Shown one piece after another: positions 2,502 to 52,808 of a DNA stretch of 64,000 bases. The DNA is from a phage: the NCBI GenBank assembly GCA_036253495.1, contig GCA_036253495.1_4125.1. One strand, 5' to 3'. The translations under genes and the position numbers were made by a program. Every line of letters starts with the position of its first letter. The first letter of the stretch is position 1. The notes beneath the pieces were generated by a model. It worked only from the letters and a program-made list of their open reading frames with translations, searched no databases and had not been told where the DNA came from.

Positions 2502-2515
2502 CGGATGATAATATC

Positions 2516-3592: not shown

Positions 3593-3604
3593 CTGGAGGT
3601 GATT

Positions 3605-16399: not shown

Positions 16400-16463
16400 G
16401 AAGTGTCTGAGTCTATAATCTACCGTAGAGCACAAGGATGTGCTCATAACTCAAGGATGTTTT

Positions 16464-23554: not shown

Positions 23555-24496
23555 ATGCAAATAGATAAATTATATACGGACGTAACTAACTTCCTCAACC
23601 AGAGTAACGCTGATTTAACAAATGAAAATGCAAATAAAGACGCTAAATGTGTTAATACACATCGTGATTTATTGGCAGGTATTCTTTCTAAACATTATTC
23701 CCAAGATGTGATTCCTGATGAATTGATGAAGTGGCATAATGAAGGTTACGGTCATATTCATGATTTAGACTATTACATTAGCCCATTAACAAACTGTTGT
23801 TTAGTTAATTATCCTGATATGCTTGCTAATGGCTTCATGATTGGTTGTGCCAAGATTGAAGAACCAAAAAGCTTTGGGGTAGCTTGTACAGTACTAACAC
23901 AGATTGTTCAGGCTGTGGCAAGTTCACAGTACGGTGGTCAGTCGTTGGCTCACATTGACACTGGCCTTGCACCATATGTACAAAAGTCATGGGATAAACT
24001 TCTAGAAAAACAAAAGAAATACAATCTTAGTACTGAATTCATCGAAGATGAGTTGCGTAAGGAAGTTTATGACGGTTGTCAAACAATTCTATATCAAACA
24101 AACTCAATGATCAGTACTAATGGTCAGGCTGCGTTCATTTCTTTGAGTTTAGGATTAGGTACATCTAAATTTGAAAAACTAATCACTGAACAATATTTGA
24201 AAGTACATGAAAATGGACTAGGTAAAGATAAGATTACTCCAGTATTTCCTAAAGTAATATTCTTTCTTCAGGATGGAATTAATATGAATACCAATGATAC
24301 TAACTATGATCTTAAACAGTTAGCTATGCGTTGTGCATCAAAAAGAATCTATCCAGACTTTGTTTCTGTACCATTGAACCATAAAGTAACTGGAAGTACC
24401 AGTACTGCTGTTACTCCTATGGGATGCAGAAGCTTCTTAGGTAAATGGGAAGATGAAAATGGCAACGAACAGTACAATGGCCGTTTCAATTTGGGT
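23555..24496 (+). CDS. nrdD: anaerobic ribonucleoside-triphosphate reductase NrdD, exon 1
   Basis: N-terminal NrdD-like region ending ...PMGCRSFLGKWEDENGNEQYNGRFNLG, matching the E. coli NrdD segment PMGCRSFLG...NLG recalled from memory; exon end placed at T24496. Confidence 0.72.
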
Positions 24497-25666
24497 AGAC
24501 ATACATGCCCCATTGCTGAGTGATCAGTAATTGCAAACACGTTAACATGCTGGAACCCCCTAAAGCCATAAACACTACAACGCAATCTTAATAGATAAAC
24601 GTGAATGTTACGAGAGTAGAAAAAAGTTTTATGGATATATAATAAGTTGTAAATCATATTATATGTACAATGGGAAATCAGCAGCCAAGCCATCATTAAT
24701 ATAATGGTGGAAGGTTCAACGAGTATAATACGTGACTCTAATATTAAAACTTCCATAAATAATATTTTATGGAGGATATATAATGAGAAAAGGAAGTATA
24801 TATAAAATAGAATGTATAGTAACTAATAAAGTTTATATTGGACAAACCGTTTTATATCCACCGATGAAAAGATGGGTGGAACACTGCCAAAACAATGATG
24901 AAAAATCATGTATTAGTAAAGCTATTAAAAAATTTGGTTTTGAAAATTTCACATTTCAAATTTTAAAAACTAATATTGATTTAAATAATCTTAATGATGA
25001 AGAAATAAAATATATTGAAATTTATGATAGTTATAAGAATGGTTACAACTCAACATTAGGTGGTCACCAAACCTTTAATGGAAGTAAAATAACTGAACTT
25101 GATGCTATAAAAATTATAGAATATATTAAATCATATAAAGATCTTTCATTCGTAGAAATAGCAAAAACTTTAAATGTTCCATACGGCTGTGTAAGTGATA
25201 TAAATTGTGGCGAAACTTGGTATCAAATAAATGAAACATACCCTATTAGAGATAACAAAAGAAATAAGATTGAAGATAATATAGATTCAATTTATGAGTT
25301 ATTGAGAAATGGTGTTTCTAGTATAGAAATTGCAAAAATATATAATGTTTCAAATGTCACCATTTGTAACGTTAATAATGGAACAATCTATCGAAACGAA
25401 TCAGTTGAATACCCAATTTTTAAACCACAAAATTCATCAAAACGACATTCTATTGAAATAGTTTCTAAGATTATTGATATGTTAATTAATACAGATAAAA
25501 ATTATTCTGAAATTGCAAAATGTTTAAATGTAGGAAGAAAAACTGTTGCAAATATCAATAACGGTTCTGGATATAAAGAACTATCAAATGAACTTGGTTA
25601 TATATCATTTCCTCTTCGTTAGAGTATGGTGTACTCTAATCCTTCATGAAAGTGAAGGTACAAATG
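24497..25666 (+). mobile_element. group I intron interrupting nrdD, carrying a GIY-YIG homing endonuclease ORF
   Basis: Exon ends in U; P-like ATGCTGGAA (24546), Q-like AATCAGCAGCC (24675), R-like GTTCAACGAG (24713); GACTCTAA (24735) pairs with TTAGAGT (25621) as P7; P9-like hairpin CCTTCA-TGAAAG-TGAAGG; terminal G at 25666; spliced product reads GRFNLG|VVSINLP in frame. Confidence 0.65.
24783..25622 (+). CDS. GIY-YIG homing endonuclease (intron-encoded)
   Basis: N-terminal IYKIECIVTNKVYIGQT (GIY-x10-YIG); SD GGAGG upstream; located inside nrdD intron. Confidence 0.8.
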   Translation: MRKGSIYKIECIVTNKVYIGQTVLYPPMKRWVEHCQNNDEKSCISKAIKKFGFENFTFQILKTNIDLNNLNDEEIKYIEIYDSYKNGYNSTLGGHQTFNGSKITELDAIKIIEYIKSYKDLSFVEIAKTLNVPYGCVSDINCGETWYQINETYPIRDNKRNKIEDNIDSIYELLRNGVSSIEIAKIYNVSNVTICNVNNGTIYRNESVEYPIFKPQNSSKRHSIEIVSKIIDMLINTDKNYSEIAKCLNVGRKTVANINNGSGYKELSNELGYISFPLR

Positions 25667-26530
25667 GTTGTCTCAATCAACCTACCGCTAATTGCTCTTG
25701 AAAGCACTACTGATGGTGATTTCTTTGATAAGATAGATGAGCATATGAACATTGCATACAGAGCACAGATGAACCGTGTAGAGCGTTTAAAAGGTACTAA
25801 GGCTAAACAGAACCCGATTCTGTTCATGGAAGGTGCTCTTGCACGTCTTGATGCAGAAGAAACTATTGACAAACTCTTCTACGATGGTTATGCTAGTATT
25901 AGTATTGGTTATGTAGGATTAGTTGAATGTTCAGAGATTTTGACTGGTTCAATCAGTAAAGAGTTCTGTATGTCAGTACTGAATTATATGAAAGTCAAAT
26001 GCGATGAGTTCAAAAAAGAGAGTAACATAGCTTTTAGTCTATATGGAACCCCAGCAGAGTCACTTTGCTACAAATTTGCACGTTGCATCGAATCTAAGTA
26101 CCCTTCAGTACTAAAACGTGATTACATCACAAATTCCTTCCATCAACCAGTATGGGTAGAAAGTTCACCATTTGATAAGTGGAGTTACGAAGAGGGCTTT
26201 GCTTACCTCAGCAATGGAGGAAACATCAGTTATGTGGAATCACCCAACCTAAGTAACAATATTCAAGCACTTGAGACTTTAGTCAATTACGCTTACACAA
26301 AGATTCCATATTTTGGCATCAACCAGCCAATTGACCAGTGTTTCGAGTGTGGGTATAAAGGTGAGTTCAGTGTAGATAAACACGGTTTTCATTGTCCAGT
26401 ATGTGATAATCGCAATGAGAAGACAATCTCAGTGATTCGTCGTGTTTCTGGATATTTGGGGAACCCATCGTCTCGTGGATTCAACAAAGGCAAACAACAA
26501 GAATGTTGTGAGCGTATACAACACAAATAA
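25667..26530 (+). CDS. nrdD: anaerobic ribonucleoside-triphosphate reductase NrdD, exon 2
   Basis: VVSINLPLIALE...; C-terminal Zn ribbon CFECG...CPVCDN and glycyl-radical motif RRVSGYLG. Confidence 0.75.
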   Translation, partial: VVSINLPLIALESTTDGDFFDKIDEHMNIAYRAQMNRVERLKGTKAKQNPILFMEGALARLDAEETIDKLFYDGYASISIGYVGLVECSEILTGSISKEFCMSVLNYMKVKCDEFKKESNIAFSLYGTPAESLCYKFARCIESKYPSVLKRDYITNSFHQPVWVESSPFDKWSYEEGFAYLSNGGNISYVESPNLSNNIQALETLVNYAYTKIPYFGINQPIDQCFECGYKGEFSVDKHGFHCPVCDNRNEKTISVIRRVSGYLGNPSSRGFNKGKQQECCERIQHK

Positions 26531-26538
26531 GGTACATT

Positions 26539-26871
26539 ATGGATTTAAAGCCAATTGTAGTTAACAAATATAAAGAACCATATGATGTGTATATTGGTCG
26601 TGGGTCTAAATGGGGAAATCCATTTACCCACATTAATGACAAACAAACAAAGGCAGAGTTTATAGTTCCGACACGAGAAGAGTCGATTGAGAAGTTCAGA
26701 GAGTATCTTATCCAAAGAATTGAAAATGGTGAGGTTACTATCGAAGAACTACTTGAATTGGCTGGGAAGCGTCTTGGGTGCTTTTGTAAGCCAAAATCAT
26801 GTCATGGTGATGTTCTTGTAGAAATAGTGAGTGCAATATTAGATGAATTACCAGACGATAATCAAGGATGA
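26539..26871 (+). CDS. hypothetical conserved protein (CxC...C.H motif)
   Basis: 110 aa; YIGRGSKWGNPF and LGCFCKPKSCHGD motifs; family not assigned. Confidence 0.45.
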   Translation: MDLKPIVVNKYKEPYDVYIGRGSKWGNPFTHINDKQTKAEFIVPTREESIEKFREYLIQRIENGEVTIEELLELAGKRLGCFCKPKSCHGDVLVEIVSAILDELPDDNQG

Positions 26872-27322
26872 TTTAGTCAATGGAGAGGGAGTTAGATGCT
26901 CCCTTTTTGTTTCAGGGTGTAGCCACGGATGTGAAGAATGCTTCAACGAAAAAGCATGGGATTATCGCAGTGGGGAAGTATTCAGTACTGAAACAGTTGA
27001 AATCATCCTGAATGAACTTAACAAGCCATATGTACAAGGATTATCCCTTTTAGGTGGTGATCCATTGATGCCAAAGAATATCAGTACTGTTATTGAGTTA
27101 TGTAAAGTAGTAAAAGAAAAATATCCAAATAAAGATATTTGGTGCTGGAGTGGTTATACTTTAGAGGAAATAATAAATAATCATGCCTCCGCAATACTAG
27201 AGTACATTGATGTATTAGTTGATGGTAAATTTATTCTTGAAGAAAAGAATTTAGAATTACCATTTAGAGGCTCTAATAATCAACGTATTCTTCGTAAAGG
27301 AGTAGATTATGCGTTATCTTGA
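26843..27322 (+). CDS. nrdG: anaerobic ribonucleotide reductase activating protein NrdG
   Basis: Radical-SAM activase N-terminus DDLVNGEGVRCSLFVSGCSHGCEECFN; overlaps upstream gene by 29 nt. Confidence 0.75.
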   Translation: MNYQTIIKDDLVNGEGVRCSLFVSGCSHGCEECFNEKAWDYRSGEVFSTETVEIILNELNKPYVQGLSLLGGDPLMPKNISTVIELCKVVKEKYPNKDIWCWSGYTLEEIINNHASAILEYIDVLVDGKFILEEKNLELPFRGSNNQRILRKGVDYALS

Positions 27323-27544: not shown

Positions 27545-30244
27545 ATGGCAAAGAAAATATATGGTGGCATTGATGTTACACATAATGTAACAGTCAAAGG
27601 TAAGAGAAGTGTTCAGAGCATCAATGATAACGTATTTGATGAAAATGGCAATCTCACAATAGATGCATATACACAAGATGATATGCTGGAAATGGTTGGT
27701 ATGTTACCCATTTCTCGTTATGGTACACAAAACTATCTACCTGCTGGTGTCAATGGTACAACAGTTGGTTCTTCAGAAAATGCTAGTTCCAGAAATACAA
27801 AATTATTTTTGGAAGATGATAACACTTTAGTAATGTTACGTCCGGGTACTAATGGAAGTTCACAGGGGATTTATTATAGTTATATGACCCAGGCGGTTGG
27901 TACAACAAATACAAGTCGTATGGTTAATACTACTCGTGCATATAAACCAAATTATTTTGGTGCTGGGTATGCAGTTTATTTGTATCCAAGCAGTGATGAT
28001 ATTACTTGTGGTTTGGTGAGAACTGAAAATTCTGATGGTACATATATTGATAGAGTTTTTGTTTCAGTCAATAATGGTACTATGAATGATACAATGCACA
28101 CTGGTATTATTCTATCAGACCATACAGCCGTACAACCTTTTGGTGCAATACAATTTGTTATTCGTGCTGAAGATGGTTCATTATACTTTTTCAGTTTAGA
28201 TACACCAAGCAATACTCTTAAAATATCCGTTACTAAAGTTACTTTTAGTCCAAGTAATAACCCAGGTGGTGGTACTTATAGTGTTACTAGAATTACTGGT
28301 TGGGCCACAAGAACTTTTTATAATGCAATGGTATATGATGACAATATTGTTCCAACTATGAAAATAAATTCAACAAATACCAATGATAATCCATACGTTT
28401 TAATTCCAAGTGGTATTATTGGGTTTGGTGTTTATATGACAGATCCAGATTTATATGTTGCACAGAAATCTGGTACATCCGAATTCAGATTTAGATTATG
28501 TGGTGATATGTGGATGACAAATGGACGATATGACACACGCCCACAACATGGTTTTAGTATGACTTTTGATGTTGTGACAAAACAATGTAAATTAGATAAT
28601 ATGTTAACGACTACACCAGTTGCTGTTAATGACACGGGTTCAAGTATGAATGTAACGGGTCAATGCATAACAAAAGATCCATTTTATCTTCACGCGGGTC
28701 TGCGTAATATTTTTAGTAATTATTGCTATGTACCATCAACTGGTGATGCATTTTGTTCATTCTCACCAAACCTCGCAGAAGCATTGAACTTATCATATGC
28801 GAAATATCCACCACAGTCATTGTTTAATTTAATGAATGTTAGAAGTGTATCAGCAACTAATTTTATTAATGGTGTAGTATCACCAAGATTTGGTTCAGCA
28901 GTTGGTTCATACCAAGTAGGTGTAGAGTTATTACCAAATAACAGTACTAAACAATATTCAAGACGTTCTGGTGATGGTCGTTTTTATCCATCCTATGCTG
29001 TACATAAAGCTACACCGAACTTCACATTTAAGTCTCTAGACTATGGTACTGTTCCTGGTTATGAACCAACACCAGACCGAGCGTTTATAACTACACCAGA
29101 ATCTAGAATTTTTATAAGTTCAATTTCTGGATCAACGGTAACGACTAATGGTGGTGTTTTGGTGGCTGATAATAGAACATCAACTCCTATTAGTTTTGAT
29201 TATAAAGGTAATGTACTGAATAATGGTACAATCAGTATGTCTCAAGATATAATGAATGCTATTCGAAATTCCGAATTTGCTAAAGTTGCTAGTTCATGGA
29301 ATATATCACCAGAATCAATAAAAACATTATCTGTATTTGTTCCACAACAAACTGATATTCCTGTTTTTGGTGTTCTTGCAGCATCTACTACAGCCCGTGG
29401 TCTATATATTCGAGTTGTTGAATTGAATGTCAATACAAGAACTGGTGATATTACAACGTGGTCGTTCAAACGTTTAGTACATGAAAGTGTTCAAGCTGGG
29501 GATTACAAAACAGATACCGCATATCATCTTGATAGTGGAAGTATTGGTATTACTATATATGATGCGGGTTCTTTCTACTTCATTGGTGGTGGTATTCCTG
29601 GTTTCTTTAATACAGTTGGTAATACAAACTCTCCATTTTTCCGTGCTACAGTGGATAAAGCGACAGCCCAATTTAATAATTTCCATATAGCTGGTGGACG
29701 TCCGATCTATGCATTAGATGGTCAACCATTCGCTTTACCTAACATTGGGTTTGGTATTCTTCAAAGTATAGATAATAATAACAAAACAATTTTTAGAACA
29801 TATGGTACAACATTAGCGGATTATAATGCATGGACTGATAAAGGAAATCCAGTTATATGTCTTGTTTCCCAAGATGTTGCTCAAGGTTTTATTATATACT
29901 TCACCGAAGAGACACCAGTACTGATATCCGGTAAACACTATACATTACCAATATCAAATATAGATTTAACAACTGTGAAAGCAAATCCTGCCAATACTAC
30001 ATTTTATGTGTATATTAAATTAGTACAGGGTATTGCAAACTATCATATATCAACAACTGAATTAGCTGAAACTCATTCAATATTCTGGATTGGTACAGTG
30101 AAAACTGATAATTTACAAATAACCGAAATTAATATAGAAAAACGTTCTCGTTTAGACCTGTTTGGTTCATCATTCAACGCTGCCGGAAGTTCCTTCCCAG
30201 TAAGTTCTGGGTTCCCTTCAAGTTCTGGTAATGTGAATTGGTAA
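27545..30244 (+). CDS. tail fibre-like protein (899 aa)
   Basis: Large late ORF; shares N-terminal motif (D.M...LP.SR.G.Q.YLP...NGT) with 30856-33597 and C-terminal ~130-aa module with both neighbours. Confidence 0.55.
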   Translation: MAKKIYGGIDVTHNVTVKGKRSVQSINDNVFDENGNLTIDAYTQDDMLEMVGMLPISRYGTQNYLPAGVNGTTVGSSENASSRNTKLFLEDDNTLVMLRPGTNGSSQGIYYSYMTQAVGTTNTSRMVNTTRAYKPNYFGAGYAVYLYPSSDDITCGLVRTENSDGTYIDRVFVSVNNGTMNDTMHTGIILSDHTAVQPFGAIQFVIRAEDGSLYFFSLDTPSNTLKISVTKVTFSPSNNPGGGTYSVTRITGWATRTFYNAMVYDDNIVPTMKINSTNTNDNPYVLIPSGIIGFGVYMTDPDLYVAQKSGTSEFRFRLCGDMWMTNGRYDTRPQHGFSMTFDVVTKQCKLDNMLTTTPVAVNDTGSSMNVTGQCITKDPFYLHAGLRNIFSNYCYVPSTGDAFCSFSPNLAEALNLSYAKYPPQSLFNLMNVRSVSATNFINGVVSPRFGSAVGSYQVGVELLPNNSTKQYSRRSGDGRFYPSYAVHKATPNFTFKSLDYGTVPGYEPTPDRAFITTPESRIFISSISGSTVTTNGGVLVADNRTSTPISFDYKGNVLNNGTISMSQDIMNAIRNSEFAKVASSWNISPESIKTLSVFVPQQTDIPVFGVLAASTTARGLYIRVVELNVNTRTGDITTWSFKRLVHESVQAGDYKTDTAYHLDSGSIGITIYDAGSFYFIGGGIPGFFNTVGNTNSPFFRATVDKATAQFNNFHIAGGRPIYALDGQPFALPNIGFGILQSIDNNNKTIFRTYGTTLADYNAWTDKGNPVICLVSQDVAQGFIIYFTEETPVLISGKHYTLPISNIDLTTVKANPANTTFYVYIKLVQGIANYHISTTELAETHSIFWIGTVKTDNLQITEINIEKRSRLDLFGSSFNAAGSSFPVSSGFPSSSGNVNW

Positions 30245-30254
30245 TGGAGATAAT

Positions 30255-30845
30255 ATGGCTTATAAATTTAGATCTGATGTGGAAGCGTATGCTTCCGTTA
30301 AATCACAAGGAAAAAATACTGGGACCACGATAACTGATCGTTCTGGTAATGTGTATCAAGCTGATGCTAATGGGAATGTTGATGTACCACTCATGAGTAC
30401 AGATGATGTGAATTACATTACCAGTTCCTTTCCGTTATCACAATTTGGTTCACTTTACAGTACTGAACCATTGGGTATTTCTGCTGCTGGTTTCAATTTA
30501 ACTTTCAGCAAAGAATTACCGTTATTCATGGCGGGAGCGGCGTATACCCTCCCAGCTAAAACAATAACGGACCCAGGAGTTACTGGAACTAATATTGAAA
30601 CACATTATGTATATGTTATATTAGATGTTGGGGTAGCTGACTACCTCATTTCTAAAACTCAACGCCCTGAAAGTAGTGTTAATATGTACATAGGACAACT
30701 GACAGTTTTCCCAGATGGCATTACAGGGGTCAGTATAAATAAAGTGTCAAGATTTGACGACTTCAGAGTAAGTGCTACAAAAATTGGTTCAGCTATCCCT
30801 ATCAGTTCTGGTACACCAGATGTGAATAGTGGGACAGAATGGTAA
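30255..30845 (+). CDS. tail fibre-associated protein sharing C-terminal module
   Basis: 196 aa; C-terminal KVSRF...IPISSGTPDVNSGTEW parallels termini of the flanking large proteins. Confidence 0.5.
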   Translation: MAYKFRSDVEAYASVKSQGKNTGTTITDRSGNVYQADANGNVDVPLMSTDDVNYITSSFPLSQFGSLYSTEPLGISAAGFNLTFSKELPLFMAGAAYTLPAKTITDPGVTGTNIETHYVYVILDVGVADYLISKTQRPESSVNMYIGQLTVFPDGITGVSINKVSRFDDFRVSATKIGSAIPISSGTPDVNSGTEW

Positions 30846-30855
30846 AGGAATATAT

Positions 30856-33597
30856 ATGGCTTCGAGACGAATTATAGGAAACGCAGAAATACTAGGGAAT
30901 TTGAAAATTAATGGAAAGTATGCATTACGTTCCTTTAATGGATTCCCTGCTGATTCTGCTGGTAATATCACTTACCAATATTATGACAAAGCGGAAGTGG
31001 ATCAAATGTTTGATATGCTTCCTGTTTCAAGGGTAGGTGATCAAGATTACCTACCGATGAGTATTAACGGTACATTTGAAGGTGCTTCTTCCTTTTCATT
31101 TGCAAAAATAATGCAACCTTGTATCATTGAAAATGATGGTACTGGTGTAATTTTACGTGCAGGTACAAATGGAAGTTCTTATGGTTTCTATTATGCTTAT
31201 ATAAAAAATATAAGAGATATAGAAACATTAACTCAAGATAATATAATTACAACCAACACGATGTATAGACCTTCTGTGCTACCAAGTACTGATTACATTT
31301 ATGAATTTTATGGGTCAAATGCATATGAATTACTATTTTGGGAATCGACTGATAGAGCATCATACTACCTTACATTAACAAATGAAACATTAAATGAATC
31401 TGCTCATAAACACTGTAGAATTCCAAAAACAGCAATAACAAATAAACCAATCTATGCACACATCGTAAATGATTCAGTTTATATATGGTGTATGGATTCA
31501 AGTGTATTGAGTAGTGTTCGCGGGTGTGCATTTATCATATACACAGTACCTTTAACTGCATTTAATACTGGTTCAGTTTCGACAGTAACACAGATTAGTG
31601 GTTATTCAGGAAGAACTATAAGAAATGTAACATACACTGCATCTAATAATATTCGTGTTTATGATAGTTATTCAGTGTTGGGTTCAGGTGGTGATGCACT
31701 AATAGCATATGATAATGGTGTTTCCAGAATAGATTATTGGGAAAATAACGCATTTAATACCCAAGCAGTTCTTAGCCCTGATGGTACAAAAATAAGAGTA
31801 GCGATATATCCAGGGTTTCGTGTCTTTACCGCAACAAAAACATCTAGTGTATATGCACTTGGTATCAGCTTTACATATGATATCAGTACTAAAACAATGA
31901 CACTTGACGGTTCTGAACGTGGTCCAATCAGAGTATCAGCTAATACATCAACTGGTAGTATAACAGTGAGTAACCCGTTTTCAATCAATATGGAAAACTT
32001 TACAGGGTTTTATGATGGTGCACTTGGTAACTATGGTTCAATCTGTCAAACTTCTGATGGTTTTGTTTTCACTACCAAAGCAAGATGGTCATCCATGCCG
32101 ACCTATGCAGTACAAACATACAAAGTTTCTGGTACACCTTATGATAGTTGGGTTGCTAAAACACGTACTGGTAGTAATTTAAAACGTGTAGAAGTAATGC
32201 CAGTTTATGGCTCCCCTGTCGGTGAAAACTTAATAGGTGTTCGTTTCGTAGATAAACGTAAGATACTTGTTGCATGTTCTGGTACTGCTGATGGAATTTC
32301 TTATGGTTATGATAGTACAGTTTTTACTGAAATAGGTGAGAATCCAACTTATAGTTATAAAAACTTGGAACAAAATACCACAATGAATGGTTTTGCACCA
32401 TCAGGTAATAGACACTATTTAAGTACTGATTACAAATATGCAGGTATGGTAACATTGGTTGATGCCAATGGAAATGTCAGCACTTATGGATCTTCTTTAA
32501 TAGAAGGTATCGATAAACCAGCTTATGGAAAATTCGACCCTGTTACAATGGACTTTAACAATGATAGATATGAAATTTCAGGAACTACATTATCAGGTAT
32601 AGGTTATAATGCCGTTGCTAAAGCTGGATTGACTGGAATAACTGAACATAAAACTGTTTTTTATTATGTACCTGATACTACATATTCTAAATCTATTGCA
32701 GTCACTTCTGCACTAAACGGTACTACCAACGTGTGTTATATTATTTTTTCCGAAATATCATGTAGTGCACTGGGTACAAGTGGTACTATAATTTTACGTG
32801 GTATTAGTGTTGATACAGCAAGATATACATCAATCACGAATACATTCCAAATTTCACCAAATGAAATGATCAAACGTTGGGCTGGTATGACTGTTGCTAA
32901 GTTTAGTGGTTTTAACTACTTAGGTGTGAACATTTTATATGGCATTGATACCCCAGGTTGGACTCGTTATCCTAACATGATTGCTAAAGTGAAAAATGGT
33001 ATTATTTCAAGTCAACGATATATGGAAACAACTTATATTTCAAACGCACAATTTGATATAGGTACAATTCCAGGGATTGGGTTTGGATATTACCAAATGA
33101 ACAAAAACGATTATCAAACTAAATCAGTTTTTGCTGTATGTGGTACTACTGAAGCAGATATGGATAAACTAATATCTGGTAATGAAACGATATCACAGTA
33201 CTTAGTTGTTGCTTCACAGGATGTGGCACAAGGGTTCAACGTGTACTTTTCACAAGAAGTACCAGTTTTCTTGGGTGGAAAGTTTGCAAAGATACCACCG
33301 ACTATGATAGACTTATCTACCATAAGTACTACACCAGATAATTCAACATTCTACATATATGCGGTTATGGATAGAGGTACATCTACAGCTTCGTATCAGA
33401 TATCACTATATCAATTATCAGAAACTATGACATCAACCTACATTGGTAAGATAGTAACTGATGCTAATGGTATTGCATCAATCGAGTCTGAAAAAGTGTC
33501 CAGATTCTTGCTATACCGCCCAAGTACCTACAATCGTGGTTCTGCTATCCCAGCTAGTTCTGGGTTACCATCACAATCTGGTACTCGTTGGAGTTAA
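30856..33597 (+). CDS. tail fibre-like protein (about 913 aa)
   Basis: ATG at 30856 after SD AAGGAA (track start 30829 lies inside previous gene); shared N- and C-terminal modules with 27545-30244. Confidence 0.55.
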   Translation: MASRRIIGNAEILGNLKINGKYALRSFNGFPADSAGNITYQYYDKAEVDQMFDMLPVSRVGDQDYLPMSINGTFEGASSFSFAKIMQPCIIENDGTGVILRAGTNGSSYGFYYAYIKNIRDIETLTQDNIITTNTMYRPSVLPSTDYIYEFYGSNAYELLFWESTDRASYYLTLTNETLNESAHKHCRIPKTAITNKPIYAHIVNDSVYIWCMDSSVLSSVRGCAFIIYTVPLTAFNTGSVSTVTQISGYSGRTIRNVTYTASNNIRVYDSYSVLGSGGDALIAYDNGVSRIDYWENNAFNTQAVLSPDGTKIRVAIYPGFRVFTATKTSSVYALGISFTYDISTKTMTLDGSERGPIRVSANTSTGSITVSNPFSINMENFTGFYDGALGNYGSICQTSDGFVFTTKARWSSMPTYAVQTYKVSGTPYDSWVAKTRTGSNLKRVEVMPVYGSPVGENLIGVRFVDKRKILVACSGTADGISYGYDSTVFTEIGENPTYSYKNLEQNTTMNGFAPSGNRHYLSTDYKYAGMVTLVDANGNVSTYGSSLIEGIDKPAYGKFDPVTMDFNNDRYEISGTTLSGIGYNAVAKAGLTGITEHKTVFYYVPDTTYSKSIAVTSALNGTTNVCYIIFSEISCSALGTSGTIILRGISVDTARYTSITNTFQISPNEMIKRWAGMTVAKFSGFNYLGVNILYGIDTPGWTRYPNMIAKVKNGIISSQRYMETTYISNAQFDIGTIPGIGFGYYQMNKNDYQTKSVFAVCGTTEADMDKLISGNETISQYLVVASQDVAQGFNVYFSQEVPVFLGGKFAKIPPTMIDLSTISTTPDNSTFYIYAVMDRGTSTASYQISLYQLSETMTSTYIGKIVTDANGIASIESEKVSRFLLYRPSTYNRGSAIPASSGLPSQSGTRWS

Positions 33598-33666: not shown

Positions 33667-34227
33667 ATGGTACAATCACGTTTTAGACCACCGCTGTCAC
33701 CAGCACAGTTACAACGTTTAAAAGAAAAAGAGCAGCACTTTCAGAATACCCTAGTAGTTCGTTTGCTATGCAAAAGTGTAACTCTTAAAGATTTTGTGAA
33801 AACCGATAATGAACGTAAATCACTTATCGAACTTAAGTACAAGTTAAGTAAGCATAAACTATATGGATTACTAGCAGAATACACCCAAAATCCATTCAGT
33901 GATCGTTGGTCTATGGTTCAAAAAAAACTGTGGGGTGGTGATGAAGAATTCACACTACGTGATTTAAAAAATGCAATCATGTTTAAGGTCGATTATACAC
34001 CAGCAGGGATTGAACACAGAACCGAAGAAACTATCATTCAATCAAGAGATTTATCATGTGTTGTTTCTTCAAACTTCGGTGTTCATTATGATATGCTTGA
34101 TGACGATGAGTTAATGATCCTGTTCCATGTGATTATTGGTGCTGAAGATATTAAAGAAAAGTTATCACAAATTGAAGAAGAACAGCGTAAATTCAAAATC
34201 CAAAAGAGAATAACTGATTTATATTAA
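33667..34227 (+). CDS. hypothetical protein, paralog family member 1 of 3
   Basis: 186 aa; shares TD-(N/E)-(E/D)-R motif region and coiled-coil-like C-terminus with next two genes. Confidence 0.45.
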   Translation: MVQSRFRPPLSPAQLQRLKEKEQHFQNTLVVRLLCKSVTLKDFVKTDNERKSLIELKYKLSKHKLYGLLAEYTQNPFSDRWSMVQKKLWGGDEEFTLRDLKNAIMFKVDYTPAGIEHRTEETIIQSRDLSCVVSSNFGVHYDMLDDDELMILFHVIIGAEDIKEKLSQIEEEQRKFKIQKRITDLY

Positions 34228-34236
34228 GAGGTTACT

Positions 34237-34737
34237 ATGTTTTTCAAAAAGAAAAATAATGATCACAAAAGAGAAAATGTAGAGTGGTGTACATTAATTC
34301 TTCCAGTACTGATGAAAAGCTATTCTTTAAAAGAAATTATCCGTACTGATGAAGATCGTAGAACTATACTTAAAATTAAAGAAATGTTAAGTTCTCATTC
34401 TCTAATGAAACTAATCACAGACCTAGTTAAAGAACCATACGGTGAACGTTGGTTATATGAACCAGTATTCATATATGGTAATCATATCAACCGTGTAAAA
34501 TTGTTTGATACCGAAACTAAGGTTGATTTTAATGCAGTAACATATTCATCTAAAGATTATGATGAAAAACATACATTTGTTTATATTAACGGAGATGCGA
34601 ATATTCTACCTAAACATGAACAAATGTTTTTGTTTCATTTACTCGTTGCACTTCGTGAGCTTGAAACAAAGTACAAGAAGTTAGAATACGAGCAGCATAA
34701 ACTTAATGAATTTAATAAATTAAAAGGATTATACTAA
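34237..34737 (+). CDS. hypothetical protein, paralog family member 2 of 3
   Basis: 166 aa; paralogous to 33667-34227. Confidence 0.45.
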   Translation: MFFKKKNNDHKRENVEWCTLILPVLMKSYSLKEIIRTDEDRRTILKIKEMLSSHSLMKLITDLVKEPYGERWLYEPVFIYGNHINRVKLFDTETKVDFNAVTYSSKDYDEKHTFVYINGDANILPKHEQMFLFHLLVALRELETKYKKLEYEQHKLNEFNKLKGLY

Positions 34738-35243
34738 TGTTCTTCGGTAAACATAAAGTAAAAGATGATGGTATTCTTCAGTACTTAGTTGCGTTGATTT
34801 TAAACAAAAGTACTTTATTAGTACCTAATATTAAATCAGACAAAGATCGCAGAGAAATTATTCAAAACAAATATCTTCTTTCAAAATGTGATCCTGTTAT
34901 CTATGCATTTTGTAAGTACTGTTCAAAAAACTTGTTCAGTATTCATGTAGATTTTGAAAGACAAGAAAGCAGCACACGAAATTCTTGTTTTAAAGTGTAT
35001 ATGATTAATGATTTAAATCGTGGGAATCGAGGGTTCATGTTCTGGATGGACGGACGTGATATACGTGTGCGTATTAAAATGTCAGTTGGGTGGAAGGATT
35101 TTTCAACTTCTGTATCTGATTTTCTTGTACTTCACGCACTATATAACAGTATTACTAACGTGAAAGATATCGACAAGAAAATTCAGGAACAAAAAGAATT
35201 GGATGATGCAAAGAACGAATACTTACAACATTACAGGAGTTAA
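34737..35243 (+). CDS. hypothetical protein, paralog family member 3 of 3 (divergent)
   Basis: 168 aa; same size and N-terminal MFF-K start as member 2. Confidence 0.4.
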   Translation: MFFGKHKVKDDGILQYLVALILNKSTLLVPNIKSDKDRREIIQNKYLLSKCDPVIYAFCKYCSKNLFSIHVDFERQESSTRNSCFKVYMINDLNRGNRGFMFWMDGRDIRVRIKMSVGWKDFSTSVSDFLVLHALYNSITNVKDIDKKIQEQKELDDAKNEYLQHYRS

Positions 35244-35246
35244 TAT

Positions 35247-35648
35247 ATGGATCTTGATGATGTGTATAGCACCATAAGACAGATGGATTCGTATAAAAAA
35301 GTATATAGTGGTTACAAGAGTGATAAACAATTTTATGGAATCGGGGAGTATGATGTAATATCATTCGAATACGATGATACTGGTGAAAGTTCCATTAATA
35401 TTGTTTGTCCTCGTGACCGTGAAAATAACTTCATGTACGTTGAAATCAATAATGATGGTTTACACTTTACTAAAATATTAAATGGTGGCAAACAATCTAT
35501 TTCTCTGGATTTATCCGAAGAAGAAAAGTTCTTTCAAGAAGATACTATAATCAATCTAGGTTTTAGTTTATCAGAATACAAAGTTCTTCATAAAGATTTC
35601 ATGAAGTACTATAATGGGTTTCTTAAGGAGCTAACATTACATCTATGA
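35247..35648 (+). CDS. hypothetical protein
   Basis: 133 aa ORF. Confidence 0.45.
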   Translation: MDLDDVYSTIRQMDSYKKVYSGYKSDKQFYGIGEYDVISFEYDDTGESSINIVCPRDRENNFMYVEINNDGLHFTKILNGGKQSISLDLSEEEKFFQEDTIINLGFSLSEYKVLHKDFMKYYNGFLKELTLHL

Positions 35649-36886
35649 ATAATAACAAATTTCTTGAACAAACAATTGTGAAGCACTTAGCAGGTTCACA
35701 AGCGTATGGAACCAGTACACCTGAAAGTGATACGGATTATCGTGGTATTTTTCTTGCTAACAAAGAGTTCATTCTGACACCTTTTTATAATGTAAAAGAA
35801 GTTTCTGATTCAAGAGAAGAAGATACTAAATTCTATGAACTAAACCAGTACTTAAGACTATACACAGAGGCTAACCCAAATATCCTTGAATCACTATGGG
35901 TTGATCCTGAACACATCGTAGAAAGTACTGAAATCTATGATTATCTACGTACATTCAATCAACAATTACTTAGTTCTAAGATCGCATTCTCTTATACCGG
36001 TTATGCATATAATCAGGTTAAACGTATGTCCAATCACCACGGGTGGATGGATAAAGAGCGTATTGCTGAAAAACGTCTAAATGAAATCTTAGAAGATTTT
36101 CCTGTAGATGAAACTTTAGCATGGATGTATGAAAACTTCCCACACTATTTGGTAGAACGTTTAGATACTTCTAAACTACATCCATTTAATGCTAAGAAAA
36201 TAGATTTTGAAAAATACATGCGTGATACTTCATTGCAGTTAGTTTCGACTCATCCGTTGAAACAGTATCATTTTGTACGTTTAGTACATAATTACAGTAC
36301 TGATAAAGTACTAGACCGTGATTTCAACTTATTGGATTATAACAATGGGTACGAATTAATTCATTACGGTGAAAATATCTTTGGTGTTATTATCAATCCT
36401 AATGAAAGTACAATTAACGCTGATGGTTCTTTACGTTATTTCAACAAAGAACGCAGTACTGAAGAATTGAAAGTGCGACCTGAACTCATTGTTAAATTCA
36501 ATGAAAAAGAATACAGTGAGAACAGTGAGAACCGTAAAAGTTATCACAAATGGAAAGAGAATCGTAATGCTAAACGTGCAATTCTTGAATCCAAACACGG
36601 CTACGATTGCAAACATGCTATGCATACGATCAGACTTTTGAATACAGCCGAAGAAGCATTACAAAGCGGTATTATCCTTGTTAAACGTCCTGATGCTGAT
36701 ATGCTAATGGATATCCGCAACGGTAAATGGAAGTATGAAGAAGTCATGGATTATTTCAATGAAAAGGTTGACTATATCCGCAATGTGGTGTATCCTAAGT
36801 CAGTTCTACCAAAGAAACCAAACATTCAACTAGCTGCAAAAGTTCTAATCGATATTCGAGAAATGCAGTGGTATGGTAAAAAATAA
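35645..36886 (+). CDS. nucleotidyltransferase-fold protein (Pol-beta superfamily)
   Basis: Classic motif HLAGSQAYGTSTPESDTDYRGIF (GS-x10-DxD); 413 aa with large C-terminal extension. Confidence 0.55.
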   Translation: MNNNKFLEQTIVKHLAGSQAYGTSTPESDTDYRGIFLANKEFILTPFYNVKEVSDSREEDTKFYELNQYLRLYTEANPNILESLWVDPEHIVESTEIYDYLRTFNQQLLSSKIAFSYTGYAYNQVKRMSNHHGWMDKERIAEKRLNEILEDFPVDETLAWMYENFPHYLVERLDTSKLHPFNAKKIDFEKYMRDTSLQLVSTHPLKQYHFVRLVHNYSTDKVLDRDFNLLDYNNGYELIHYGENIFGVIINPNESTINADGSLRYFNKERSTEELKVRPELIVKFNEKEYSENSENRKSYHKWKENRNAKRAILESKHGYDCKHAMHTIRLLNTAEEALQSGIILVKRPDADMLMDIRNGKWKYEEVMDYFNEKVDYIRNVVYPKSVLPKKPNIQLAAKVLIDIREMQWYGKK

Positions 36887-47260: not shown

Positions 47261-47893
47261 ATGCTATATAATATTGGTATTATGGACGTACCTGGTGATG
47301 GTAACATAAAATCTCCTGATAATAAAATATATAAAACATGGTGTTCAATCTTTGTTAGATGCTATTCGCCAATATCACTAAAAAAACGCCCAACGTATGA
47401 ATTAACCGAAGTATGTGATGAATGGAAACTATATTCAAACTTCAAAAAATGGTATATAAGTAATTATATAGAAGGTTACTTTCTTGATAAAGATATTATT
47501 GATGGTACTTCTAATATTTACTCACCATATACTTGCTCGTTTGTTCCAAACATTATAAATTGTTGTATTTTGGATGGGAATTCAAAAAACTCTAATCTAC
47601 CAATTGGTGTTCATTATAGACCGAAAGGGAAAGATATGGTCAACGAATTTTCGAATCCATATCAAGCAAGACTCTGGAAATATAAAAAACGTGTATCACT
47701 CGGATGTTATCCTACACCATATGATGCACATAAAGCGTGGCAATTTGGTAAGAAAGAATACTTATTAGAATTGATTAACGACTATAGTGATAAAGTTACC
47801 CCTGAAGTTGTTGTCGGTTTACAACGTAGAATTGATATACTAACCGATGATATAAAAAAATGTAGAATTACAAATTCAATCAGTAAAATATAG
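47261..47893 (+). CDS. putative HNH-type homing endonuclease-like protein
   Basis: N-terminal W-x2-I-x2-RC and VCDEW..F..F..W pattern typical of phage HNH endonuclease N-terminal modules. Confidence 0.4.
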   Translation: MLYNIGIMDVPGDGNIKSPDNKIYKTWCSIFVRCYSPISLKKRPTYELTEVCDEWKLYSNFKKWYISNYIEGYFLDKDIIDGTSNIYSPYTCSFVPNIINCCILDGNSKNSNLPIGVHYRPKGKDMVNEFSNPYQARLWKYKKRVSLGCYPTPYDAHKAWQFGKKEYLLELINDYSDKVTPEVVVGLQRRIDILTDDIKKCRITNSISKI

Positions 47894-47898
47894 AGAGG

Positions 47899-48237
47899 TT
47901 GTATATGCTAAATCTAGTTATTCAAGGTAATGTTGATATTACTCCAGCAATCCATGACGCAATTCATCAAGAAGCAAACACTCTAAATAAATTTAGTGAT
48001 TCTTCAGTACTGAATATTGGTGTTCATGTGAAAAAAGAGCATAAGACACAGTACGCAGTAACTTTAACATCAGGTGGTAAGTCTGTTACTGCCGATGATG
48101 CAGATTTATACAAGGCGATTGTCGATTCATTCGAAAAAATGGAAACTGTATTCAGTAAAGACAAAAGCATTAAATTGCACCGCCGAAACCATCCAGACCG
48201 TCCAGTTGTAGTTGATGTAACTGACGAAGAAGAGTAA
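47899..48237 (+). CDS. ribosome hibernation promoting factor (HPF/RaiA-family) homolog
   Basis: 112 aa; MLNLVIQGNVDITPAIHDAIHQ... and ...ADDADLYKAIVDSFEKME match HPF/YfiA architecture and length. Confidence 0.6.
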   Translation: MYMLNLVIQGNVDITPAIHDAIHQEANTLNKFSDSSVLNIGVHVKKEHKTQYAVTLTSGGKSVTADDADLYKAIVDSFEKMETVFSKDKSIKLHRRNHPDRPVVVDVTDEEE

Positions 48238-48734: not shown

Positions 48735-48920
48735 ATGGAATATACAATAGGTGCAATAGTATGTATCGCAGCATTATTAGGTGGCATTGGTGTGATGATT
48801 TACTTTGATGCAGAACCCAGTACTGAAATGGGTACAACCCTGGAACTCAAACCTGGCATTAAGGTGAACGACTCTTACTGTTACGATCCACATAGTAATA
48901 AGTATGTGATTTGTTTATGA
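48735..48920 (+). CDS. small membrane protein
   Basis: ATG at 48735 five nt after GAGGT; N-terminal TM helix. Confidence 0.4.
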   Translation: MEYTIGAIVCIAALLGGIGVMIYFDAEPSTEMGTTLELKPGIKVNDSYCYDPHSNKYVICL

Positions 48921-49327
48921 AAAAGTTTAATATTAAACCGATATTTGATGCTATCGAAATTAAATTGAAAGACCAACGAAAACCCGATGGTACTGGTTTA
49001 TTCTTTAGTTTAGATAGAACCTACGTTGAAACACATGTATCAAGTTTTGATAGAACTGGTAATCTTTTCATCCGTTCATATAACATGTTTTATAGTGAAG
49101 ATGTTTTTATGATAGATATCACTTTAGATGAAAGTATAGGTTTGATGTACATTGAAGATGTTCAATCAAACGATCAACGAAACGGCACACTTCCTATTGG
49201 TGCTACCGAGGAAGAGTTTATGCAATATCAGTTCATTGATGATACCTTTGGTATTGACTTTGTGACATATCAGAGTATAATGCGTGTATACGAACAGTAT
49301 GAGGATTACGTAATTGGACGTTACTAA
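48917..49327 (+). CDS. hypothetical protein, tandem paralog 1
   Basis: C-terminal QYQFIDDTFGIDFVTYQSIMRVYEQYE nearly identical in pattern to next gene. Confidence 0.45.
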   Translation: MKKFNIKPIFDAIEIKLKDQRKPDGTGLFFSLDRTYVETHVSSFDRTGNLFIRSYNMFYSEDVFMIDITLDESIGLMYIEDVQSNDQRNGTLPIGATEEEFMQYQFIDDTFGIDFVTYQSIMRVYEQYEDYVIGRY

Positions 49328-49736
49328 AATACCCAAATTCAACGAAACGTTAAAGTACTTTTCTGAACAAGAGTTCAGTACTGAAAGACGTGGTTTAGTC
49401 ACATACAACCAATATCGCGTAATGTATACTAACCAGTTACAAGGAACAGTACGTATTAAAATCCGTAATGCATATGATGATGGTGATGAATTATTAATTA
49501 TACTAAGAAAAAGTAAGATAGAACTACAATACCATAGATTTGATACTTCCGATGAGTTTGCATGGAATGTGTTAGAAAAAAAAGCAGGTTCATTGCCTGT
49601 AGTTGATGATGGACCTGAAGTACTGGCCCAGTATATGTTCATTGATGACACATTTGGTATTGACTATTCTTCATTTCAGTATATACTATCTATACATAAA
49701 CAATATGAATCCCGCTTGCGTGACAGATTAATTTAA
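49314..49736 (+). CDS. hypothetical protein, tandem paralog 2 (TTG start)
   Basis: C-terminal QYMFIDDTFGIDYSSFQYILSIHKQYE; N-terminus aligns with paralog 1. Confidence 0.4.
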   Translation: MDVTKIPKFNETLKYFSEQEFSTERRGLVTYNQYRVMYTNQLQGTVRIKIRNAYDDGDELLIILRKSKIELQYHRFDTSDEFAWNVLEKKAGSLPVVDDGPEVLAQYMFIDDTFGIDYSSFQYILSIHKQYESRLRDRLI

Positions 49737-49872
49737 TTGGAGGCTTTATGATTGCAATGTTAGAAGAAGATTGGGGTGTTTCTGAACAAGGAACCGACGA
49801 ATATCAAGTTCCAGAATACAAGCCAAAAGGCTTCTGGGAAAGTCTGCGTGATTGGTTGATGGGAGAATAAGA

Positions 49873-50985
49873 ATGAAAAAATACCTTGTTGGTGGATACT
49901 GCCGCGACCGTCTAATGGGCATTCGTGCAAAGGACAAAGATTATGTCATTGTTGGTGCAACTGAATCTGATATAAAATACTTAGAAAGTATTGGATATAA
50001 ACAGGTTGGTAAAGATTTTCCAGTTTATCTAAGCCCAGAAGGTAACGAACACGCATTAGCCCGTACTGAACGAAAAACTGGTACTGGATACGGTGGCTTC
50101 GAAGTGGATACAAAAGGTGTAACACTGGAACAAGATTTGTATCGTCGTGATCTTACAATTAATGCAATCGCGTATGATCCAGTACTGCAAATTCACATCG
50201 ACCCATACGGTGGTAAAGCTGATATCAAGAATAAAGTACTACGCCATGTATCCGAGCACTTCAAAGAAGATCCATTGCGTGTATTACGTCTAGCTCGCTT
50301 TGCTACGCGTTATTCTGATTTCTCTATACACGAGACTACTGAAGCACTTGCAATCGATATGGTAGCGTCTGGTGAGCTAAATCACCTTGTTCCAGACCGT
50401 GTTTATGTTGAATTTGAAAAGGCATTGTCAGAAGAGAAGCCAGCTAAGTTCCTTAAAACACTAAGTAAGTTGGGTTACTATGAAAAAGCATTTAATGCTA
50501 CATTAACCAAAAAGTCATTGGAACTCATTGATCATATCTCTGATAATTGTACTGAAGCATATAAGCCATATTTCTTATGGTCTGTGCTTCTTGAGAAAGA
50601 AGAAGTTGGCGAGGATTCAGTACTGAATGGTGCTATTAAAATGCCCGTTAAGTACGTTAAATTCAGTAATTACATCAAACGTTTCCGTGATGATATCAAG
50701 GCATTCCGTAAAAAGACCCCAAATGAAATGGGACAATTATTACTGGATATGAATATCAAGAATAACGGCGGTGAAGAATTCCTTTACAAAGTACTGGAAT
50801 ATTTTATTCTACGTAAAGAGATTGATTTAGACCTTGAAGATTTAATCATTAAGGTATATGATCGTTACACTGATGTAGTACTTCCAGATATTCAACAACT
50901 GGTAAAAGACGGTGAGTTAGAAGCATCTGAAATCCGTGATTTTGTTTCAGATTTACGTTGTGAAGCAATTCAACAAATGTTTTAA
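49873..50985 (+). CDS. tRNA nucleotidyltransferase (CCA-adding enzyme) family protein
   Basis: Head-domain motif YLVGGYCRDRLMGIRAKDKDYV (GG.xRD..LG....D.D); ATG at 49873 after GGAG. Confidence 0.7.
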   Translation: MKKYLVGGYCRDRLMGIRAKDKDYVIVGATESDIKYLESIGYKQVGKDFPVYLSPEGNEHALARTERKTGTGYGGFEVDTKGVTLEQDLYRRDLTINAIAYDPVLQIHIDPYGGKADIKNKVLRHVSEHFKEDPLRVLRLARFATRYSDFSIHETTEALAIDMVASGELNHLVPDRVYVEFEKALSEEKPAKFLKTLSKLGYYEKAFNATLTKKSLELIDHISDNCTEAYKPYFLWSVLLEKEEVGEDSVLNGAIKMPVKYVKFSNYIKRFRDDIKAFRKKTPNEMGQLLLDMNIKNNGGEEFLYKVLEYFILRKEIDLDLEDLIIKVYDRYTDVVLPDIQQLVKDGELEASEIRDFVSDLRCEAIQQMF

Positions 50986-51058: not shown

Positions 51059-51488
51059 ATGCGTTATAGTTGTGGCATTATATTTTATCGTGATGGTCAG
51101 ATACTTGTTGGACACACAACACGGACAGAAGCATTGGGATTTACCAAAAGGTAAAACCGAGGGCAATGAAACATTTGCTGAAGCTGCTGTTCGTGAGTGC
51201 TATGAAGAAACAGGATTTGAGATTGATGAAAAGGATCTTCTCTTATTAGGTGATGTATCATACAGGAAAGGGAAAAGATTAGTTTTATTTTTCTATACAG
51301 CTAAATACAAACCCGAACCGGATGAACTGAAGTGTAACAGTACTTATACCAATCGATATGGTAAAAGCCATCCAGAATTGGATAAATTCATGTACATTGA
51401 TGTTCAAGATTGTCAAAAGTATTTGACCGAACGAATGTGTAACAGTATAATTAAAGCTGTTAAATTGTTTCAAAAAAATAAAGGATAG
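51059..51488 (+). CDS. Nudix hydrolase, apparently interrupted by a +1 frameshift near 51113-51125
   Basis: Frame A (51059-51154) encodes MRYSCGIIFYRDGQILVGHTTR; frame B (track ORF 51072-51488) carries an exact Nudix box GKTEGNETFAEAAVRECYEETG. Confidence 0.5.
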
Positions 51489-51492
51489 TTAT

Positions 51493-51741
51493 ATGAAAGT
51501 GAAAATTTATGGTCGCACGACTGGTTGTAATTTCTGTGATACAGCAAAAGCAATTTGTGAGAACAATTCATTTGAAATGGATTTTATCGATGTGGTTTCT
51601 GAAGGTATTGATGGTGCTAAACTATCAGAAATTTGCGGTGAGCCAGTTCGTCAAGTTCCACAAATTTTCGTAAATGATGAGTATGTTCCTGGTGGATGTA
51701 CTGGTTTTGTTAACGGGCTAAAAGAAGGTCGCTGGAACTAA
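51493..51741 (+). CDS. glutaredoxin/NrdC-like thioredoxin-fold protein
   Basis: 82 aa; CxxC active site (TGCNFC) near N-terminus and C-terminal VPQIFVNDEYVPGGCTGF. Confidence 0.6.
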   Translation: MKVKIYGRTTGCNFCDTAKAICENNSFEMDFIDVVSEGIDGAKLSEICGEPVRQVPQIFVNDEYVPGGCTGFVNGLKEGRWN

Positions 51742-52328: not shown

Positions 52329-52808
52329 ATGATACATGAACATAGCGGCAATCTGTTTGATTTATTCAGTACTGTTACTGATGATCAAACCGCGTTGCAT
52401 ATAATCGCTCATGGTTGTAATGCACAGGGTAAGATGGGTTCGGGTTTTGCAAAAGAATTAAGAAAGCGTCACCAATTGGCATATGATGTGTATCATACAC
52501 GTTATACCAATCAGAATGGTTTGAAATTGGGTGAAGTTGTCTATGCAGCACCAAATAATAACTTAATTATTGCAAACTGCATTACACAAGAGTATTATGG
52601 TAATGATGGTAAGAAGTATGTAAGTTATGATGCGATTGACCTTGCATTTAACTCGATGAATGAATTCATTAAAAATGAACCACAAGAGATCCATGTACAC
52701 TTCCCGAAAATTGGAGCCGATTTAGGCGGTGGTAACTGGAACGTTATCAAAGAAATCATTGACCACAGGCTGGTTAATGCTGAAAAACATTTATATATTC
52801 TCAAATAA
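52329..52808 (+). CDS. macro-domain-like protein (tentative)
   Basis: TALHIIAHGCNAQGKMGSGFAKEL loosely resembles the macro-domain ADP-ribose-binding segment. Confidence 0.4.
   Translation: MIHEHSGNLFDLFSTVTDDQTALHIIAHGCNAQGKMGSGFAKELRKRHQLAYDVYHTRYTNQNGLKLGEVVYAAPNNNLIIANCITQEYYGNDGKKYVSYDAIDLAFNSMNEFIKNEPQEIHVHFPKIGADLGGGNWNVIKEIIDHRLVNAEKHLYILK

Follow-up and report, generated by a model that had tools for sequence, protein, structure and literature searches.

In 2013, gp031 of Klebsiella phage RaK2 was put forward as a putative CCA-adding enzyme, one that might mature the tRNAs of the phage itself (PMC3622015), and a 2021 survey of jumbo phages placed CCA-adding enzymes among the RNA-repair genes that serve in biological conflicts (PMC7824862). 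Here we analyse a cca-like gene carried by a 64,000-nucleotide stretch of phage DNA (contig GCA_036253495.1_4125.1 of NCBI GenBank assembly GCA_036253495.1), which is referred to below as the window. The window region is 97.8% identical at the nucleotide level to Escherichia phage A4 (ON286972.1, 355 kb, genus Asteriusvirus) and ~80-82% identical to 121Q, PBECO4, Sharanji and other jumbo coliphages; judged by this similarity, the window is from an Asteriusvirus jumbo phage, an E. coli myovirus. We propose that the gene probably encodes an active CCA-adding enzyme that lacks phosphohydrolase activity; such an enzyme makes or restores the CCA terminus required by all tRNAs.

The jumbo-phage tRNA nucleotidyltransferases of PHROG 2244 (RaK2 gp031, A4_536 of phage A4, and those of 121Q, PBECO4 and GAP32) belong to the same family as the window protein from end to end, lie in the same gene neighbourhood and differ from it in nothing of substance. 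The A4 orthologue A4_536 shares 98.1% amino-acid identity with the window protein, and the records of A4_536 and most other orthologues already name tRNA nucleotidyltransferase or CCA-adding enzyme as the product. By tblastn, 495 phage records contain a class II homologue, and in 72 of them the match extends over 80% or more of the length. The gene is already known and routinely annotated, and its identification as a CCA-adding enzyme in a first-pass annotation made from the sequence alone is correct and has little discovery value.

Compared with E. coli Cca, the phage protein has a 52% identical head and neck (BLASTP, residues 1-207, with nothing matched beyond), the same logic of motifs A, B and D, a near-identical flexible loop and a homologous distal C-terminus. 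However, E. coli Cca has 412 residues with the HD ligands, whereas the phage protein has 370 residues, is thus ~40 residues shorter and has no HD counterpart, and the 2',3'-cyclic phosphodiesterase/phosphatase activity is not expected of it. The Thermotoga maritima (3h37/3h38/5hc9) and Bacillus stearothermophilus (1miv) enzymes share the full fold with template modelling (TM) scores of 0.65-0.72, but their overall identity is only 20-23% and their body and tail are unrelated at the BLAST level. E. coli PcnB, the poly(A) polymerase (PAP) I, belongs to the same superfamily and shares the core motifs, including EDxxR; in contrast, it is 33% identical, and the phage protein has neither the PAP motif nor the N-/C-terminal PAP extension.

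Assignment to the CCA-adding family

Profile, sequence and fold comparisons support the assignment of the encoded protein to the class II CCA-adding tRNA nucleotidyltransferases, with the activity itself predicted. Pfam analysis identified the poly(A) polymerase head domain PF01743 (PolyA_pol, residues 4-124, E 6e-18) followed by the RNA-binding domain PF12627 (PolyA_pol_RNAbd, residues 149-207, E 2e-07), and the protein matched PHROG 2244, 'tRNA nucleotidyltransferase', end to end (E 7e-114). The top five NCBIfam models were all CCA-adding equivalogs, the best being PRK10885 (NF008137) with 273 bits and an E value of 4e-81. By comparison with these 273 bits for the E. coli-type Cca model, the PcnB model (TIGR01942) reached 89 bits (88.9, where the cut-off is 305.65), and the A-adding model gave 64. 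A direct sequence match was also obtained to the T. maritima structure 3h37 (E 5e-21). The matches to PF01743, PHROG 2244 and PRK10885 far exceed chance expectation.

The CCA-adding identity proposed by the first-pass annotation was borne out by both measures, since PRK10885 scored 273 bits against 89 for PcnB and the protein is 52% identical to Cca against 33% to PAP I. Profile search assigned it neither to the poly(A) polymerases nor to another class, and the PAP signature is absent too. Three related enzyme types were considered and rejected: a poly(A) polymerase, because the protein lacks the PAP signature and scores far lower with PcnB; a CC-adding enzyme, because the flexible loop is not deleted; and an E. 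coli-type bifunctional enzyme carrying an HD domain, because the HD residues are absent.

The gene lies at 49873-50985 on the plus strand, where the open reading frame (ORF) starts with ATG 49873, ends with the stop codon at 50983-50985 and encodes 370 amino acids plus the stop; the N-terminus of the encoded 370-residue protein reads MKKYLVGGYCRDRLMGIRAKDKDYV. The ORF and the head-domain motif singled out in the first-pass annotation are present exactly (GG-YC-RD-R-LMG-IRAK-D-K-D, residues 7-23). In contrast, the length of 377 residues given there counts from an in-frame TTG at 49852, from which the longest version of the ORF starts, and the coordinates 49873-50985 give 370. ATG 49873 is the true start because a Shine-Dalgarno-like GGGAG, read from the sequence at 49861-49865 on the plus strand, stands 7 nt 5' of it, because an upstream 40-residue ORF ends at 49870 (stop 49868-49870; TTG 49852 falls within this ORF) and because the homologues have the equivalent Met. 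Indeed, all 33 aligned homologues begin M-K/R/Q-K, and a start corresponding to TTG 49852 occurs in none of them. The gene, part of a co-directional array and equipped with a good ribosome-binding site, has a GC content of 0.34-0.40, compared with 0.30-0.38 in its surroundings. In a promoter/terminator scan near the gene, promoter counts were not above those of shuffled sequence.

Catalytic motifs and discrimination from related enzymes

To distinguish the enzyme types we applied the rules of Hoffmeier et al. 2010 (PMC2910056; also PMC2532741) to an alignment of 34 family members with identities of 38-90%, using E. coli Cca and E. coli PAP I as controls. Motif A (GGYCRDRLMGIRAKDKD, residues 7-23, 49891-49941, plus strand as for all motifs below), located by regular expression and alignment in the Pol-beta-type head, contains the metal-binding carboxylates D21 and D23. 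All 34 sequences share G7, G8, R11, D12 and D23, and D21 is Asp in 32 and Glu in the remaining two. Motif B (DLYRRD, residues 88-93, 50134-50151), which serves ribose recognition, has R91, R92 and D93 invariant in 34/34. The same holds for E132, D133 and R136 of motif D (EDPLR, residues 132-136, 50266-50280), the amino-acid template that chooses CTP and ATP (PMC2532741).

Between motifs A and B lie the basic/acidic motif and the flexible loop (ALARTERKTGTGYGGFEVDT, residues 61-80, 50053-50112), which are near-identical to those of E. coli Cca (ALARTERKSGSGYTGF); the loop itself (ALARTERKTGTGYGGF) aligns with the E. coli Cca loop without a gap. In class II enzymes this loop is needed for the switch to A addition (PMC2532741, PMC2910056), and its deletion is the mark of CC-adding enzymes (PMC2910056). 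The spacing from motif A to motif B is 64 residues in the phage protein, compared with 63 in E. coli Cca and 74 in E. coli PAP I, and a deletion of the CC-adding type is thus absent. Each phage record, A4 included, has a single match place among the matches listed, and hence there is no sign in these records of a split pair of CC-adding and A-adding enzymes.

The motif E region (DRVYVEFEKAL, residues 175-185, 50395-50427), with R176 and E180 invariant, carries a further discriminating position. According to the downstream rule ERxxxExxxhh, the first Glu is present in CCA- and CC-adding enzymes, whereas A-adding enzymes and PAP carry a small residue in its place (PMC2910056). Both controls behaved accordingly, with ERVWKETESAL in E. 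coli Cca and ARLFEESLKLL in PAP I. Position 175 is Glu in 25 of the 34 family members, Asp in eight (the window protein and seven others) and Asn in one. D175 is, as far as sequence can tell, a conservative change that keeps the carboxylate. The PAP signature [LIV][LIV]G[RK][RK]F.[LIV]h[HQL][LIV] was matched by the E. coli PAP I control (LVGRRFRLAHV) and was absent from the window protein and from 34/34 family members.

Overall fold and loss of the HD site

An AlphaFold2 model built from the 34-sequence family alignment had a mean predicted local distance difference test (pLDDT) score of 92.4 and a predicted TM score of 0.84, with no segment below a pLDDT of 50. When the model was searched against the PDB with Foldseek, the matches with E <1e-7 were class II nucleotidyltransferases only, and their alignments of ~390 columns covered the whole head-neck-body-tail ('seahorse') architecture. 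The matches included the T. maritima CCA-adding enzyme (3h38, TM 0.72, E 1e-15), its tRNA complex (5hc9, TM 0.69) and the B. stearothermophilus enzyme (1miv, TM 0.65), and further the psychrophilic, human and Arabidopsis enzymes and the Aquifex aeolicus A-adding enzyme, with PAP I lower in the list.

The C-terminal body and tail half (residues 208-370, 50494-50982, plus strand) is all-helical in this model, with pLDDT >88 throughout. No Pfam match to the HD domain PF01966 was obtained in the protein at E values up to 0.1. In profile-profile alignment the phage family nevertheless aligned end to end with nine HD-containing Ccas, and the C-terminal halves alone gave an hhalign probability of 96.8% with an E value of 2.4e-10 (phage residues 235-369 against E. 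coli residues 266-403), which indicates that the distal C-terminal helices are homologous to those of E. coli Cca. The invariant H223, H231, H255-D256 and H273 of the HD-type Ccas have no aligned counterpart in the phage protein, which is ~30 residues shorter in the stretch that holds the HD ligands. The C-terminal half of the phage family contains no conserved histidine either, and only F264, N297, G299, E301 and D330 reach 85% conservation there. The phage enzyme thus lacks the HD metal-binding residues and should not, by itself, heal 3'-phosphate or cyclic-phosphate ends.

A4_536 and its homologue XbC2_189 carry the label 'multifunctional tRNA nucleotidyl transferase/2',3'-cyclic phosphodiesterase/2'-nucleotidase/phosphatase'. 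Because the HD site is absent, we regard such labels as transferred over-annotation, and one useful point of the present analysis is that this common multifunctional label on these phage proteins is wrong.

tRNA genes in related phages

The first-pass annotation had noted the absence of tRNA genes from the window, and ARAGORN and Rfam agree on this: neither ARAGORN nor Rfam at gathering thresholds detected a tRNA gene in the 64 kb, and Rfam, run over the whole window, likewise yielded no tRNA-like element, intron or other known RNA. Its suggestion that substrates might be encoded elsewhere was borne out in relatives, where A4 has at least six tRNA genes and ECO103 4-12-1 has seven, several of them without an encoded CCA. 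For ECO103 4-12-1 (OR844650.1, 352 kb, same genus) the whole genome was scanned for tRNAs; for A4 the scan covered 1-50 kb, 128.7-144.8 kb, 299-312 kb and the stretch homologous to the window, and the first 50 kb contained no tRNAs. The seven tRNA genes of ECO103 4-12-1 form a single 4-kb cluster. In the homologous cluster of A4, ARAGORN detected six tRNA genes, five of which are also annotated in the record.

CCA status was read from the bases 3' of the discriminator. In A4 the CCA is encoded by the genes for Ser-TGA, Gly-TCC, Ser-GCT and Met-CAT and is not encoded by those for Asn-GTT (…CAGAGTC-G-CAA) and Thr-TGT (…AGTCGGC-A-CAA), in which the discriminator is followed by CAA instead of CCA. 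In ECO103 4-12-1 the Met, Arg and Ser-TGA genes encode CCA and the other four of the seven (Thr, Asn, Ser-ACT and Gly-TCC) do not. Asn and Thr tRNAs therefore lack an encoded CCA in both phages, and their C75 and A76 must be added post-transcriptionally, which would be a direct job for the phage enzyme. The mixed cluster of CCA-encoding and CCA-less genes in the two relatives thus offers a concrete set of substrates. A tRNA with a CAT anticodon, which may be Met, Ile2 or a pseudo-tRNA, lies between the Ser and Asn tRNAs in both phages but differs markedly between them; it is 90 nt long with a long extra arm in ECO103 4-12-1 (L004:32316-32405) and 79 nt long in A4 (L012:6616-6694).

Such a mixture of genes with and without encoded CCA, which makes CCA addition necessary, is also found in the tRNA cluster of phage T4. 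Unlike the present phage, which carries its own enzyme, T4 uses that of the host: some T4 tRNAs depend on host Cca, and Deutscher, McClain and colleagues reportedly found in the 1970s that host Cca acts on the T4 tRNAs without encoded CCA. The host E. coli Cca is dispensable, and E. coli is not known to have any tRNA gene without an encoded CCA.

Proposed function and alternative explanations

From the conserved residues and the known class II enzymes we infer the enzymatic activity, the product length and the in vivo substrates as follows. The protein probably descends from a gammaproteobacterial-type Cca whose HD phosphohydrolase site has since been lost. Its helical body and tail would grip the tRNA, D21 and D23 would coordinate two metal ions, and the EDxxR template of motif D would pick CTP twice and then ATP once the flexible loop rearranges, with polymerisation ending at three nucleotides. 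In the infected cell the enzyme may have two roles, in both of which it would supplement the host's own non-essential Cca: it would complete phage tRNAs from CCA-less genes, such as Asn and Thr in the closest relative, and it could help to repair the 3' ends of host or phage tRNAs that have been trimmed by exonucleases or cut by 3'-end-directed nucleases. The idea of tRNA 3'-end repair had been raised in the first-pass annotation for damage by anticodon as well as acceptor-stem nucleases. It fits 3'-end damage; anticodon-nuclease cuts are beyond the reach of a CCA-adding enzyme because their mending needs a kinase/phosphatase and a ligase.

Several points weigh against a working CCA-adding enzyme in this role. 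All NCBIfam scores lie under the equivalog cut-offs (273 versus 451 bits, for example), because only the N-terminal half is matched, the NF008137 match being confined to profile positions 1-202 of 409. The C-terminal half differs in sequence from every characterised enzyme, and in class II enzymes this half helps to decide between CCA and poly(A) synthesis. At position 175 the window protein has Asp where the published CCA/CC rule, like most of its relatives, has Glu. The tRNA evidence comes from relatives with 97.8% and ~82% nucleotide identity and not from the window's own genome. Moreover, E. coli has its own Cca, and any need of the phage for a copy is hypothetical. We also found no biochemical study of any phage class II CCA-adding homologue in the literature.

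A first alternative keeps the same enzyme and changes its purpose: it may be maintained chiefly as a counter-defence that rebuilds tRNA 3' tails lost to host immune or toxin nucleases acting on the CCA or acceptor end, for example Cas12a3-type CRISPR effectors or CdiA-CT EC869-type toxins. If so, translation would continue during infection as the enzyme outpaces the host's clipping of tRNA CCA tails. Cutting of these tails by Cas12a3 is an anti-phage response to which viral countermeasures are, in the words of the study that described it, 'yet unknown' (PMC12851939), so that the discovery of Cas12a3 makes phage CCA-adding enzymes obvious candidates for such a countermeasure. The placement of CCA-adding enzymes among conflict-related RNA-repair genes in the jumbo-phage comparison cited above (PMC7824862) points the same way, as do the spread of class II homologues over the 495 phage records, the RlaP RNA-repair nucleotidyltransferase in the window (35645-36886) and the NUDIX and macro-domain genes beside cca. 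However, any link between Cas12a3 and these phages is hypothetical. Cas12a3 cleaves 2-4 nt 5' of the 3' end; its cuts reach as far as the discriminator and often fall 5' of it, and with tRNA-Ala the fragment released was ACCA (PMC12851939). Faithful restoration of the discriminator is not a known ability of CCA-adding enzymes. With the HD phosphoesterase lost, the 2',3'-cyclic phosphate and 3'-phosphate ends left by many toxin RNases would not be healed, and the CCA-less phage tRNA genes already offer a simpler reason for the enzyme. We therefore consider a mainly counter-defensive purpose improbable.

The second alternative is a different specificity, namely that of an A-adding enzyme restoring the terminal A only, or of a poly(A) polymerase tagging RNAs for decay. 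Class II CCA-, CC- and A-adding enzymes and PAPs do share their core motifs and are often mis-annotated (PMC2910056), and Foldseek matches A-adding enzymes (4wc2, 1vfg) and PAP I (3aql) as well. The C-terminal half, unlike in sequence to any characterised enzyme, and D175 in place of the Glu of the ERxxxE rule could be read in the same direction. But the Asp keeps the carboxylate and most relatives have Glu, the PAP signature (of the LVGRRFRLAHV type) is absent in 34/34, and the loop and basic/acidic motif scarcely differ from those of E. coli Cca, a bona fide CCA-adding enzyme. The Cca profile is ahead of PcnB by ~180 bits and of the A-adding model by ~210, and phage tRNA genes without C75 and A76 require more than the addition of A. 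We regard a changed specificity as very improbable.

Finally, an inactive remnant or a protein with a non-catalytic role such as tRNA sequestering, to which the decayed HD site and the scores below the NCBIfam equivalog cut-offs might point, is scarcely credible. The catalytic and template residues are invariant in members down to 38% identity, which implies purifying selection on catalysis, and the intact ORF, the confident and fully folded model and the synteny kept across phage genera tell against it as well. The motif and conservation data thus make both a changed specificity, A-adding or poly(A), and a loss of activity unlikely, and we favour an enzyme that adds CCA and lacks phosphohydrolase activity.

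Genomic neighbourhood and other genes of the window

The gene is part of a conserved block of lysozyme, S30AE-like protein, small ORFs, cca, NUDIX hydrolase and glutaredoxin, which extends out to Xanthomonas phage XbC2 (genus Mimasvirus), whose Cca homologue is 58.7% identical at the amino-acid level. Recent capture from the E. coli host was rejected as an origin of the gene on the grounds of its phage-like GC content, the identity of only 52% and the synteny out to the Xanthomonas phage. Directly 3' of cca, on the plus strand, lie the NUDIX hydrolase (51072-51488) and a glutaredoxin-like ORF (51493-51741), followed by a weak macro-domain protein (52329-52808, plus strand), which is below the Pfam cut-off and annotated as macro domain in A4.

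Upstream, on the plus strand, a 112-residue homologue of the S30AE/ribosome hibernation (sigma-54 modulation) family is encoded at 47899-48237 (PF02482, 4e-10). It also lies upstream of cca in XbC2 and bears the misleading label 'putative sigma factor' in A4. Just upstream of cca, two slightly overlapping plus-strand ORFs of 138 (48911-49327) and 140 residues (49314-49736), of unknown function, both belong to PHROG 20693 and hence are tandem paralogues. Mobile-looking ORFs differ in presence and absence between the near-identical window phage and A4. A 210-residue ORF at 47261-47893 (plus strand), which matches only the C-terminal half of the HNH-endonuclease PHROG 953, is absent from A4; a 355-residue treble-clef zinc-finger ORF (DUF4379/CapR-like, L001:6881-7948), which lies immediately upstream of cca in A4, is absent from the window.

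A second RNA-end-modifying enzyme of the window is encoded 13 kb upstream of cca. This 413-residue Pol-beta nucleotidyltransferase (35645-36886, plus strand) belongs to the RlaP family (PF10127), which is associated with RNA-ligase-based RNA repair. Further upstream, the anaerobic ribonucleotide reductase gene nrdD (23555-26530, plus strand) is split into two ORFs: the first (23555-24523) covers positions 1-283 of the NRDD profile and the second (25646-26530) covers positions 280-562 together with the glycyl-radical domain. Between the halves lies an ORF resembling a GIY-YIG/helix-turn-helix homing endonuclease (24783-25622); Rfam at the gathering threshold detected no group I intron at the split gene. 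An activase-like radical-SAM gene (26843-27322) follows nrdD. Two large paralogous proteins of 899 (27545-30244) and 922 residues (30829-33597), both on the plus strand, belong to PHROG 3573, have no Pfam domain and are of unknown function; three small paralogues (PHROG 18641/7868) follow this pair at 33667-35243. Other recognisable genes are found on the plus strand at 1083-4396, 5244-5939, 14462-15214 and 16440-17903, and the other products encoded on that strand are an ATP-dependent DNA ligase, a CapR-domain protein, a calcineurin-like phosphoesterase, a ClpP protease, Sir2 and a PIN+PhoH fusion. The sole long minus-strand gene of the window (9337-11763) encodes an 808-residue protein with eight Big_2 Ig-like repeats.

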